From a virus (taxonomy: Duplodnaviria > Heunggongvirae > Uroviricota > Caudoviricetes), in IMG/VR virus record IMGVR_UViG_3300029476_000065: 5,224 nucleotides of DNA. One strand, written 5' to 3'. Every line of letters begins with the position of its first letter. Within the stretch, counting starts at the first letter, position 1. Below, piece after piece: positions 2,915 through 3,644 of the stretch. The translations under genes and the position numbers were made by a program. The notes beneath the pieces were generated by a model that had not been told where the DNA came from, made no database searches, and saw nothing but the letters and a program-made list of their open reading frames with translations.

Positions 2915-3028
2915 TTATTTTCGACGCCTGAGATTCTTCGCTACTTGTTCTACTCCGTATACGATCACAAGCAGAAATAGCAAAGACCATCCAGGGTTAT
3001 TATCAATATACGTCCAAAAATCCATCAT
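2915..3028 (-). CDS. Tiny predicted membrane protein (37 aa), possible third gene of the TerB-like operon
   Basis: ATGATGG start overlapping the preceding stop (ATGA overlap). AGGAA 4 nt upstream. Product MMDFWTYIDNNPGWSLLFLLVIVYGVEQVAKNLRRRK has one hydrophobic helix and a basic C-terminus. Stop TAA at 2915-2917, 9 nt before the tRNA. Below the ORF-track size cutoff. Confidence 0.5.
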   Translation of the reverse strand: MMDFWTYIDNNPGWSLLFLLVIVYGVEQVAKNLRRRK

Positions 3029-3189
3029 GAGTTCCTGAACGCAGCTTTAATAATCGGCAATAGCAATACCACAGCTACTGAAACCAGTGCCCCATCAGCC
3101 AACACCGACATCACTTTGCTGGTGAAATCCACCAGCACGGACAAAACGAGAAAACCAATGGCGCACGCAATACGCGCCTTGCCAATCAT
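3025..3189 (-). CDS. Small predicted membrane protein (54 aa), possible second gene of the TerB-like operon
   Basis: ATG at 3187-3189 overlaps the TAA of the TerB-like gene by one nucleotide. Product MIGKARIACAIGFLVLSVLVDFTSKVMSVLADGALVSVAVVLLLPIIKAAFRNS is strongly hydrophobic (about two TM segments). Stop TGA at 3025-3027. Confidence 0.55.
   Translation of the reverse strand: MIGKARIACAIGFLVLSVLVDFTSKVMSVLADGALVSVAVVLLLPIIKAAFRNS
3129..3136 (-). other. Chi octamer (5'-GCTGGTGG-3' on the minus strand)
   Basis: Exact CCACCAGC on the plus strand at 3129-3136, same orientation as the site at 964. Confidence 0.5.
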
Positions 3190-3644
3190 TACAGATAATC
3201 TTCCACACGAAGGCCCAAACGACGGCCTACTTCTTCCAGTACTTTGTGTTCTGCTGGCTCGATTTCACCGTCCGCTTCTGCAATCGTCAGCATGTTAACG
3301 AATACTTCTTCCGCTTCTTTTGGATCATTTTTGATATCTTCAATTTCGCGAAGGATATTCATGCGACCAACACGGAAACCAGCTTCCAGTTGCTCAGTAA
3401 ATCGGGTGATTGTTGCGGTAATTTCGTTGCCAAAATGACTTAAGCGAGGATTAGAGCGGACAAGCTGATCAAGTTTCGCTGTTTCTTCCTTTTCGATTTC
3501 ACCATCTGCGGCAGACACCAACAAACAGCCACCGATAATGGCCTCCATCAGATCGCGATTCTCAACCCTTTTCAGCTCTACTTTTGCTGAAGCGACTTTC
3601 TTACCGAAAAATTTACCGAACATTGGTTTTCCCTCAATAAACAT
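3189..3644 (-). CDS. tciA: TerB-family (tellurite-resistance TerB-like) protein, 151 aa; resembles P1 TciA
   Basis: Complete ORF from the track. It carries two copies of the acidic A-D-G-E-I-E motif (VSAADGEIEKEETAKL and IAEADGEIEPAEHKVL) typical of the TerB domain. The first ATG (3644) has no obvious SD; an in-frame ATG at 3623 is preceded by GAGGG with 7-nt spacing, so the real start may be 21 nt downstream. Symbol assigned by analogy to P1 tciA from memory, not by search. Confidence 0.8.
   Translation of the reverse strand: MFIEGKPMFGKFFGKKVASAKVELKRVENRDLMEAIIGGCLLVSAADGEIEKEETAKLDQLVRSNPRLSHFGNEITATITRFTEQLEAGFRVGRMNILREIEDIKNDPKEAEEVFVNMLTIAEADGEIEPAEHKVLEEVGRRLGLRVEDYL

Follow-up and report, generated by a model that had tools for sequence, protein, structure and literature searches.

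The three genes analysed here are, by alignment, the phage D6 alleles of tciA, tciB and tciC of phage P1 (terB, upf69.4 and upf69.6 of P7). The same comparison identifies the locus as a D6-lineage allele of the P1 cassette tciA-tciB-tciC-trnI, lying inside a minus-strand cluster of tRNA and STnc100-like RNA genes. Taken as a whole, the explanation that we consider quite probable is that this cassette plays an accessory role, with TciB acting as a membrane tether for the TerB-domain protein TciA and TciC being a separable add-on. The cassette itself is already known, having been annotated in P1 since 2004, and no new kind of system is added here. The window, that is, the whole stretch of DNA analysed, comprises 5,224 nucleotides and shares 99.4% nucleotide identity with phage D6, a phage-plasmid of the P1 family.

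Identity and organisation of the locus

The ORFs lie on the minus strand at 3189-3644, 3025-3189 and 2915-3028. All of these coordinates, taken from the original prediction, check out, and the sequence bears out the overlaps of 1 nt (TAATG) and 4 nt (ATGA) by which the three were said to be joined. The first, tciA (terB-like), occupies 3189..3623 when read from the start preferred below and encodes 144 amino acids. It is followed by tciB (3025..3189), which codes for a DUF3927 membrane micro-protein of 54 amino acids and whose ATG sits on the tciA stop, and by a tciC-like gene (2915..3028) with a predicted single-pass membrane peptide of 36-37 amino acids as its product. The last stop ends at 2915 and the 5' end of the tRNA is at 2905, so that the cassette does end 9 nt short of a tRNA as had been proposed; the spacer (2906..2914, minus strand) was read off the sequence. 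The tRNA gene (2830..2905, minus strand) is matched by ARAGORN and by the Rfam tRNA model and encodes a tRNA-Ile(CAU), an ileX-like AUA decoder. The label tRNA-Met(CAT) given by ARAGORN was rejected, as RefSeq lists as tRNA-Ile both the identical gene and chromosomal relatives that are 90.8% identical to it. The P1 annotation names the corresponding tRNA trnI. The cassette is neighboured by pmgS on one side and by a Tad2-like gene, lpa and pacA on the other; apart from tciA, the ORFs of at least 90 amino acids in the window that have a family or a D6 annotation are the Tad2-like gene, D6 orf5 and lpa.

The P1 record (NC_005856), reportedly annotated by Lobocka et al. 2004, has the order tciA-tciB-tciC-trnI. 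The choice of P1 tciABC as the comparison proved sound, since P1 and P7 (terB-upf69.4-upf69.6-tRNA, NC_050152) have the same order and type of overlap, and both micro-ORFs, whose lack of conservation had been proposed as grounds for abandoning the prediction, are conserved in these homologous loci. P1 agrees with the window in gene order, strand relation, stop/start overlaps and the tRNA-Ile(CAU) directly downstream, but differs in sequence (TciA 30% and TciC 29% identical), in the spacer between tciC and the tRNA (3 nt in P1 against 9 nt) and in setting, the P1 cassette being flanked by dmt and ban and governed by Pban, a promoter under C1 control. P7 is far closer in its first gene, with TerB 99% identical as protein and 95% as DNA, but has tciB and tciC at only 75% and 55% DNA identity, which indicates allele replacement by recombination. 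The P7 record mentions similarity to TerB and to hypothetical proteins of CP-933R/CP-933P.

TciA and its TerB domain

The TerB-like character of the 151-amino acid ORF product was upheld by Pfam and by a PDB sequence match. TciA matches Pfam TerB (PF05099) with 54.1 bits (cut-off 24.4, E 2.3e-14) over profile positions 2-113 of 118, PHROG 632 ('tellurite resistance') with E 6e-63, and the Klebsiella TerB structure 2JXU with E 2e-7. The AF2 model (pLDDT 91.6, pTM 0.86) has six helices, and its best Foldseek match in the PDB is 2H5N (probability 1.0, TM 0.52-0.59, E only 0.04), which we take to be TerB-like. TciA contains two acidic D-G-x5-E motifs, AADGEIEKEE and EADGEIEPAE, the key residues of which (D47/G48/E54 and D125/G126/E132) are identical in the window, P7 and P1. 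An alignment of 30 TerB sequences shows G41, E47, G119 and E125 to be invariant and D40 and D118 to be nearly so. The acidic D-G-x5-E residues of TerB are said to have been predicted as metal-binding by Anantharaman et al. 2012. The tciA product is a soluble, cytoplasmic, all-helical TerB-domain protein with both of the acidic motifs of the family.

At the protein level TciA is 99% identical to P7 TerB and 30% identical to P1 TciA; the 21 nucleotide differences between the window and P7 change just 2 amino acids. The second ATG, at 3623 (144 amino acids), is likely to be a better start than that at 3644 (151 amino acids), judging from the sequence context: a GAGGG Shine-Dalgarno lies 8 nt upstream of 3623 and none precedes 3644, the P7 and D6 annotations place the start at the equivalent of 3623, and residue 1 of the 151-amino acid version is unmatched in P7-type loci.

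The TerB-DUF3927 pair

TciB belongs to DUF3927 (Pfam PF13064, 66.8 bits against a cut-off of 25, E 1.6e-18; PHROG 1470, E 3.5e-21). It contains the conserved core of this family, V-D-F-T-S-x3-S-x3-D, and is 61-67% identical to the TciB proteins of P1 and P7 (61% to that of P1). An alignment of 12 diverse DUF3927 members, too varied to serve for a pattern search, shows no variation at R6, V18, D21, S28 and D32. The hydrophobic character predicted for both small products is strong, with segments 5-24 and 28-51 in TciB and 11-29 in TciC. The AF2 monomer of TciB forms one continuous helix of 51 residues rather than a hairpin. DUF3927 proteins are small, all but three of the 73 cluster representatives found among 1.84 billion proteins being 21-87 amino acids long. 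Natural TerB-DUF3927 fusions were considered as evidence for interaction and discarded, as the three long DUF3927 matches, and likewise P0109 and P0079, are frameshift or assembly chimeras; no genuine fusion occurs among the 73 representatives. A word-indexed protein search with TciB returned just 6 matches, and in phage records tblastn with the peptides TciB and TciC matched only D6, P7 and one P1, a scarcity due to the shortness and hydrophobicity of the peptides.

Of 60 distinct TerB-DUF3927 pairs (about 180 loci in prophages of Enterobacterales and Pseudomonas), 57 have their two genes joined by a stop/start overlap, in the form of TAATG, TGATG or GTGA. It persists from 100% down to 30% TerB identity, and the prophage hosts that bear it include Serratia, Pectobacterium, Pseudomonas, Enterobacter, Pantoea, Citrobacter and Erwinia. 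TerB lies upstream in all DUF3927-anchored viral loci. Because the overlap recurs in so many distinct sequences, its occurrence in the window reflects more than chance. In a few TerB homologues the partner is instead an unrelated protein of 67-71 amino acids with an N-terminal TM segment, the gene of which also overlaps; a small membrane protein as partner is thus the constant feature of these TerB genes. That TerB and DUF3927 form a conserved, translationally coupled pair is strongly supported by comparison of these junctions. The pairs in lambdoid and other prophages resemble the window in that a DUF3927 gene starts on the stop of a TerB gene, the product of which has 85-92% amino acid identity in the lambdoid cases, but they have neither a third micro-ORF nor an adjoining tRNA-Ile, and their DUF3927 proteins (49-61 amino acids) have an N-terminus unlike that of the window. 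RNA folding reveals nothing unusual at the tciA/tciB junction (z 0.06), while a hairpin at the tciB/tciC junction (z -1.6) is only suggestive.

Structured RNAs and transcription

Directly 5' of tciA, filling the gap to tRNA-Ser, is a structured non-coding unit (3655..3890, minus strand) made up of a long hairpin and an STnc100/PasD-like element. The Rfam STnc100 match is E 2e-7 on 301 nt, with a score of 39.4 bits that falls below the gathering score of 47. The window has four diverged copies of such a unit, this being one of them; two more STnc100-like units lie between the tRNAs of the upstream array. The upstream tRNA array (3891..4678, minus strand), delimited with ARAGORN, Rfam and alignment, consists of tRNA-Ser(UGA) at 3891-3977, tRNA-Thr(UGU) at 4432-4507, tRNA-Tyr(GUA) at 4512-4598 and tRNA-Asn(GUU) at 4604-4678. 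The D6 record lacks two of the tRNA genes of the region. The PasA/PasC sRNAs are reported to have conserved neighbours, TerB among them, and STnc100 and tRNAs lie close by.

An intrinsic-type terminator-like hairpin with a T-run (5145..5162, minus strand) stands upstream of the entire tRNA/tci cluster; it is the sole strong site of this kind on the minus strand from 5224 to 2640, there being none from 5145 to 2640. A scan for sigma-70 promoters on the minus strand found no site within the window and one weak sigma-70-like site in D6 outside it, and the C1-operator consensus of P1, allowing up to 3 mismatches, has no match in the window or the D6 locus. The lack of a strong terminator-like site from 5145 to 2640 agrees with a single transcription unit, but as neither a promoter-like site nor a C1 operator was found to start it, the unit is an assumption. 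The idea that the cassette depends through its codon usage on tRNA-Ile(CAU) was rejected, since ATA codons are absent from tciA, tciB and tciC.

Variability and separability of tciC

Like its P1 counterpart, tciC is located between tciB and tRNA-Ile(CAU), with its start overlapping the tciB stop. Two adjacent ATGs are available: that at 3028 gives the ATGA overlap of 4 nt, and that at 3025 gives a TGATG overlap of 1 nt. The latter form is found in every P1 and P7 allele, and the start could possibly be ATG 3025, matching P1. The peptide has an acidic N-terminus, a hydrophobic segment at 11-29 and an RRRK tail, and shares with the P1 allele the motif M-x-F-W-x3-D-x2-P, one TM segment and a basic C-terminus, at 29% identity over 35 amino acids. 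An intermediate toward P1 is provided by the L162-type allele, which is 67-70% identical to the window peptide and 39% identical to the P1 type (E 3e-8 in a pairwise BLASTP comparison). In all, three types of TciC are distinguished, with 23-67% amino acid identity. The spacer to the tRNA is 3 nt in P1 and P7 and 9 nt in the window and the L162-type allele.

Identity between the window and P7 falls and rises sharply across the locus: 90% over the 200 nt upstream, 95% in tciA, 75% in tciB, 55% in tciC and 99% in the tRNA, leaving tciC hypervariable between near-identical flanks. In loci L162, L187 and L188, tblastn finds neither TerB nor DUF3927, but tciC is retained at a distance of 9 nt from the tRNA; some 30 D6-like plasmids in PLSDB have this arrangement, with tciC adjoining the tRNA and no tciA or tciB. 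Conversely, none of the TerB-DUF3927 pairs found outside the P1/D6 lineage has a third micro-ORF. By this distribution tciC is confined to the P1/D6 lineage, hypervariable and separable from tciAB.

These features might suggest that tciC encodes an independent small membrane effector, unrelated to TerB in function and merely lodged between tciB and the tRNA; it might, for instance, mediate exclusion or immunity, resemble a toxin or modulate a membrane protein of the host. The hypervariability between conserved flanks, the three divergent alleles, the solitary copies in plasmids and an architecture of one TM segment plus a strongly basic tail all agree with this idea, which we regard as possible yet fairly unlikely: the tciC start overlaps the tciB stop wherever tciB is present, an antisense RNA or antitoxin is not evident, and a CRISPRi screen of P1 found tciA, tciB and tciC to be non-essential, with tciC knock-down having no fitness effect (PMC10695390).

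The opposite view, implicit in the original prediction, is that TerB and two membrane subunits form an obligatory co-translated trio, working only together. All three ORFs do overlap, and the identical set with its overlaps recurs in P1, P7 and D6-type elements. This view is nonetheless improbable, given the pairs outside the lineage that have no tciC, the plasmids in which tciC occurs without either partner, and the differing recombination histories of the three genes. P1 and P7, for example, have 100% identical tciC and the 3' part of tciB in common, but tciA only 54% identical, and such separate recombination argues against tight pairwise co-adaptation. Of the claim that both peptides are co-translated with TerB, the coupling of the DUF3927 peptide thus receives strong support from the conservation of the overlap, whereas the third peptide is no obligatory part of the TerB unit.

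Proposed function of the cassette

Under the preferred reading of a tethered TerB domain with TciC as an add-on, ribosomes ending tciA would re-initiate on tciB and yield the two products in a fixed ratio. TciB would be the membrane partner that brings the TerB domain to the inner membrane. A counterpart in cis is offered by DjlA and YebE (DUF533), in which a TerB-like domain is held at the inner membrane by the protein's own TM segment; in the cassette the tether would be a micro-protein of its own, made by coupled translation. Weak matches of TciA to both (DjlA NCBIfam, E 8e-6; DUF533, E 1.5e-4) fall well short of the family cut-offs, and TciA therefore belongs to neither family; it differs from DjlA also in having no J domain. 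TciC is predicted to be oriented with its acidic N-terminus out and its RRRK tail in. It would be translated by like coupling when tciB is present, as an exchangeable, separable add-on specific to the P1/D6 lineage. Its constant partner would rather be the tRNA-Ile gene 3-9 nt downstream, and cleavage by RNase P at this tRNA probably produces the 3' end of the mRNA. The cassette may then be regarded as a non-essential accessory element ('moron'), most likely concerned with envelope, ion or stress physiology or with exclusion. All three genes are transcribed during P1vir infection (bioRxiv 10.64898/2025.12.28.696737), and the operon is missing from about half of one P1 subgroup (PMC9603915), indicating that it is dispensable.

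The gene names imply instead a miniature Ter system that confers tellurite resistance, colicin resistance or phage inhibition on the lysogen. TciA is indeed a homologue of the TerB-domain protein, of about 150 amino acids, that IncHI2 plasmids and E. coli O157 encode in their ter operon (terZABCDEF), and P1, P7 and D6 are annotated in this sense 'by homology'. We know of no DUF3927 or TciC-like peptide in the ter operon. Only terB has a counterpart here, no other ter gene being present in the D6 region annotation or among the window ORFs. Operons of the ter type, which contain terB, have been connected with resistance to tellurite and with the inhibition of phages (cited in PMC9603915), but a study of D6 plasmids grades the operon as incomplete (PMC6799933). 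Against PADLOC-DB 2.0, TciB and TciC match no defence model, and the sole TciA match, PDC-S48 (14 bits, E 0.005, 36 residues), is not significant. In addition, the P1 cassette belongs to the C1-repressed ban operon and the TerB cassette of lambdoid phages lies near rusA and Q, settings that suggest expression in lytic growth rather than in the lysogen. We therefore hold a miniature Ter system to be as doubtful as an obligatory trio. The tellurite, colicin and phage-resistance phenotypes of the cassette are names assigned by homology only; it is not a complete ter operon and, we infer, not a stand-alone tellurite-resistance system.

An extension of the tethering model, which we offer as a long shot, is that TerB and DUF3927 make up a widespread two-part membrane module of temperate phages of Enterobacterales and Pseudomonas. 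TerB would serve as a sensor or metal-binding domain recruited to the inner membrane by the coupled micro-protein, and the module would act during phage lytic development, either altering envelope or ion physiology or excluding competitors; in the P1/D6 lineage the hypervariable, tRNA-linked TciC would separately determine specificity or exclusion and be caught up in an arms race. For the function of TerB in phages, the relevant unit would be the two-gene pair rather than the P1-specific trio.

Coding status of tciC and annotation

Substitutions between tciC and the 76%-identical L162 allele number 17 synonymous in 21.5 sites, which are saturated, and 14 non-synonymous in 77.5 sites, a pN/pS of about 0.23, and by this pattern tciC is coding and under purifying selection. 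The frame is open in 16 of 16 distinct alleles, and a Shine-Dalgarno (AGGA or AAGGA) precedes the start. TciC has no family in Pfam, PHROG or NCBIfam, tblastn of the window peptide finds nothing beyond D6, and a scan of the genome collection with the TciC alignment gave 6 pattern matches, 0 of them confirmed. That the third micro-ORF is no gene and arose by chance within the tRNA-Ile precursor, in its leader or spacer, as its mere 36-37 codons and this lack of matches might imply, is very improbable in view of the open frames, the substitution pattern, the Shine-Dalgarno, the motif and TM-plus-basic-tail architecture kept across alleles and the pairwise match between the L162 and P1 types.

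The new details are the recognition of TerB-DUF3927 as a conserved pair, probably coupled in translation, and of tciC as a separable, fast-changing, tRNA-linked peptide. While D6 and hundreds of plasmids already have tciA and tciB in their annotation, and PGAP annotates the L162 allele of tciC as a CDS, the D6 RefSeq record is without tciC. The annotation can be amended by adding to D6 its tciC allele and the two tRNA genes, by renaming 'tRNA-Met' as tRNA-Ile(CAU) and by shifting the start of tciA.

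Gene layout and start codons

The three tci genes lie on the minus strand and overlap one another. tciA (3189..3644, 151 aa) ends in TAA, the final base of which opens the ATG of tciB (3025..3189, 54 aa; junction TAATG), and the TGA of tciB overlaps the ATG of tciC (2915..3028, 37 aa; junction ATGA). A spacer of nine bases (2906-2914, minus) separates the tciC stop from a tRNA gene (2830-2905, minus), so that the arrangement of three overlapping ORFs with the last 9 nt ahead of a tRNA reads in the window as first described. ATG 3644 of tciA has no Shine-Dalgarno sequence, and its Met is not kept in P7-type loci; ATG 3623 has GAGGG upstream at a spacing of 8 nt, and its equivalent is the start in the records of phages D6 and P7. 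The probable start of tciA is accordingly corrected from ATG 3644 to ATG 3623 (144 aa). tciC opens with ATGATG, and its second ATG (3025) gives a 1-nt overlap, TGATG, as in every P1/P7 allele. The tRNA, called tRNA-Met(CAT) by ARAGORN, is instead tRNA-Ile(CAU): an identical gene is labelled tRNA-Ile in RefSeq, as are chromosomal E. coli relatives (90.8% identical), and the gene is named trnI in P1.

Kinship with P1-type phages

Escherichia phage D6 (NC_050154), a P1-family phage-plasmid, is 99.4% identical to 2800-3700. Its RefSeq record labels the first two genes 'similar to P1 tciA' and 'similar to P1 tciB' and leaves the tciC ORF and adjoining tRNA unannotated. The gene order is that of tciA-tciB-tciC-trnI in P1 (NC_005856) and terB-upf69.4-upf69.6-tRNA in P7 (NC_050152), where the overlaps are 1-nt. 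With a common gene order, overlaps and alignable proteins, the P1 tciABC genes named in the original prediction were the right comparison. Identities of the window proteins to those of P7 and P1 are 99% and 30% for TciA, 67% and 61% for TciB, and 29% in both for TciC. The locus is an already known cassette, and both the original observation and its interpretation proved correct. Added here are an unannotated divergent tciC allele and the corrected start codons and tRNA identity, together with a near-universal putative coupling of TerB and DUF3927 genes and a tciC that is separable and hypervariable.

TciA, TciB and their pairing

TciA is a TerB-domain protein, as predicted, matching Pfam at 54.1 bits (cut-off 24.4; E 2.3e-14), PHROG 632 at E 6e-63 and the solved TerB structure 2JXU at E 2e-7. 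Its AF2 model is all-helical and confident (pLDDT 91.6). The closest PDB fold is 2H5N (probability 1.0, TM 0.52-0.59, E only 0.04), a structure classed as TerB-like. Both D-G-x5-E motifs are conserved in alignments. Apart from tciA, neither the D6 annotation of this region nor the ORFs of the window include a gene of the tellurite-resistance operon terZABCDEF, and a PADLOC search of the cassette proteins gave no significant match.

TciB is a DUF3927 member (Pfam, 66.8 bits, cut-off 25), also matched by PHROG 1470; the 12 diverse members compared all have R6, V18, D21, S28 and D32. The hydrophobic character foreseen for both small peptides is present, in segments 5-24 and 28-51 of TciB and 11-29 of TciC. 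Since basic residues flank both ends of the TciB segments, the peptide may form a hairpin whose two termini are cytoplasmic. The AF2 monomer model is unlike this, being one long helix.

TerB lies immediately upstream in 78/78 DUF3927-anchored IMG/VR loci. In TerB-anchored loci, from 100% to about 30% identity, the DUF3927 gene comes next and starts on the TerB stop codon, an arrangement present in 18/22 species-representative genomes (including Serratia, Pectobacterium, Dryocola, Pseudomonas, Enterobacter, Pantoea, Citrobacter, Buttiauxella and Erwinia). Conservation of tciB in homologous loci is hence broad, and across all loci the start codon of 57/60 distinct DUF3927 coding sequences falls on the stop codon of the gene before it (TGATG, TAATG or GTGA). 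Among 1.84 billion cluster representatives, a profile search picked out 73 members, all except three of 21-87 aa. These three longer members and two TerB-DUF3927 'fusions' from a word-indexed search were rejected as frameshift chimeras. Such gene calls in public data (a Dryocola sp. locus, L167, and protein entries P0035, P0053, P0079 and P0109) could pass for natural fusions. A few TerB homologues (50-74% identity; loci L149, L151, L152, L159 and L170, a Paracoccus MAG among them) are followed not by DUF3927 but by a protein of 67-71 aa unrelated to it, which has an N-terminal TM segment and conserves a Y-G-Y motif; its gene overlaps the TerB stop codon.

TciC and modular exchange

TciC has an acidic N-terminus and an RRRK tail around its one hydrophobic segment. 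It shares with P1/P7 the motif M-x-F-W-x3-D-x2-P, the single segment and a basic C-terminus, and matched no family in Pfam, PHROG or NCBIfam. The tciC frame is open in 16/16 distinct alleles of the P1/D6 lineage, so conservation of this ORF stands there; it does not extend further, as a third hydrophobic micro-ORF is absent from every TerB-DUF3927 pair elsewhere, lambdoid or not. The D6-like plasmid NZ_CP066033 (L162) is without tciA and tciB and keeps a 42-aa tciC allele, called as a CDS by PGAP, 9 nt before the same tRNA. The plasmids L187 and L188 are arranged likewise, and stand-alone tciC occurs in about 30 PLSDB plasmids, a number equal to the carriers of the window's own allele. Between the window and L162, differences affect 17/21.5 synonymous and 14/77.5 non-synonymous sites, which clearly points to a coding gene with purifying selection on the protein. 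L162 TciC is 67-70% identical to that of the window and 39% to that of P1 (pairwise E 3e-8), and appears to bridge the D6 and P1 types.

DNA identities, window to P7 against P7 to P1, are 95% (21 nt, 2 aa differences) and 54% for tciA, 75% and 87% for tciB (the latter pair differing mainly within the first 51 nt), 55% and 100% for tciC, and 99% and 100% for the tRNA. By these comparisons the three genes have been swapped as separate modules, with tciC a hypervariable segment flanked by conserved sequence. This modular pattern speaks most strongly against a tight complex of TciA, TciB and TciC, and it fits the description of tciABC as one among the variable regions of P1-like plasmids, lacking in about half of one subgroup (PMC9603915).

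Proposed role

The identities, coding status and conserved overlaps of the three genes are established here. By termination-reinitiation, TciA and TciB would be produced at a fixed ratio, and TciB may be a membrane partner bringing the TerB domain to the inner membrane. DjlA and YebE place a TerB-like domain there in cis; TciA matches both weakly. TciC would be a lineage-specific add-on, coupled to tciB wherever that gene occurs and joined physically to tRNA-Ile, and the mRNA 3' end probably derives from RNase P. The P1 genes are non-essential by CRISPRi (PMC10695390) and transcribed during infection (bioRxiv 10.64898/2025.12.28.696737); the resistances ascribed to the cassette are predictions (PMC6799933, PMC9603915).

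Flanking genes and RNA elements

About 450 nt downstream of tRNA-Ile lies a 191-aa ORF (1801-2376, minus), D6 orf6 ('hypothetical protein'), whose residues 102-190 match Pfam Tad2-like (Thoeris anti-defense 2-like, PF11195; E 3e-9, 37.7 bits, cut-off 25). D6 orf5, lpa and pacA follow; the region matching D6 pacA contains 41 masked N (810-850). In lambdoid prophages TerB lies in a conserved PasA/PasC sRNA neighbourhood with STnc100 and tRNAs nearby (bioRxiv 10.64898/2026.05.13.724894). Given these settings, the cassette is accessory 'moron' territory in P1-type and lambdoid phages alike.

Upstream of the tci genes, on the same strand, are tRNA-Asn, -Tyr, -Thr and -Ser. Four diverged copies of one structured unit, of about 190-235 nt (2470-2660, 3655-3890, 3978-4212 and 4213-4431, minus) fill the tRNA/tci spacers, each a long hairpin followed by GGTGAATGCG and then GGAGGCACCAG..GCCGCAAC. 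Only the unit just upstream of tciA (3655-3890) matches Rfam STnc100, at 39.4 bits, below the threshold of 47; many lambdoid and Stx phages have segments that match bases 3661-3700 at 100% identity. In the fourth unit the hairpin (4350-4430, minus) includes a tRNA T-arm-like AGGGTTCGAATCCCT within a 10-bp stem, possibly what is left of a decayed tRNA; ARAGORN, relaxed settings included, called no tRNA there.

The cluster is preceded by a strong terminator-like hairpin (5162-5145, minus; intrinsic terminator GCCCATCTTCGGGTGGGCTTTTTT), and none comparably strong follows until past tRNA-Ile. It ends an element (5145-5224, minus, extending past the window; 6264-6370 in D6) with a long hairpin, AAGAAAGAAGCCGACT...AGTCGGCTTCTTTCTT in D6, that resembles the 3' portion of a small RNA. 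This element lies upstream of the tRNA array, at the place of P1's annotated dicF-like region, and has no match in Rfam. As neither a promoter-like site on the minus strand of the window nor a P1 C1 operator was found, we only infer a tRNA/tci transcription unit.

Close relatives differ in their tRNA sets. That of the window is Asn-Tyr-Thr-Ser-Ile; Tyr (window 4512-4598) is absent from reference D6 and plasmid L163, and in L162 Arg(TCT) replaces Asn. In the D6 RefSeq record (4031-4106 and 5092-5797) the strand given for tRNA-Ser, -Thr and -Asn is the reverse of that called by ARAGORN, and tRNA-Ile(CAU) and tciC are missing; that of P7 (4078-4164) is without the tRNA-Ser(UGA) found by ARAGORN.
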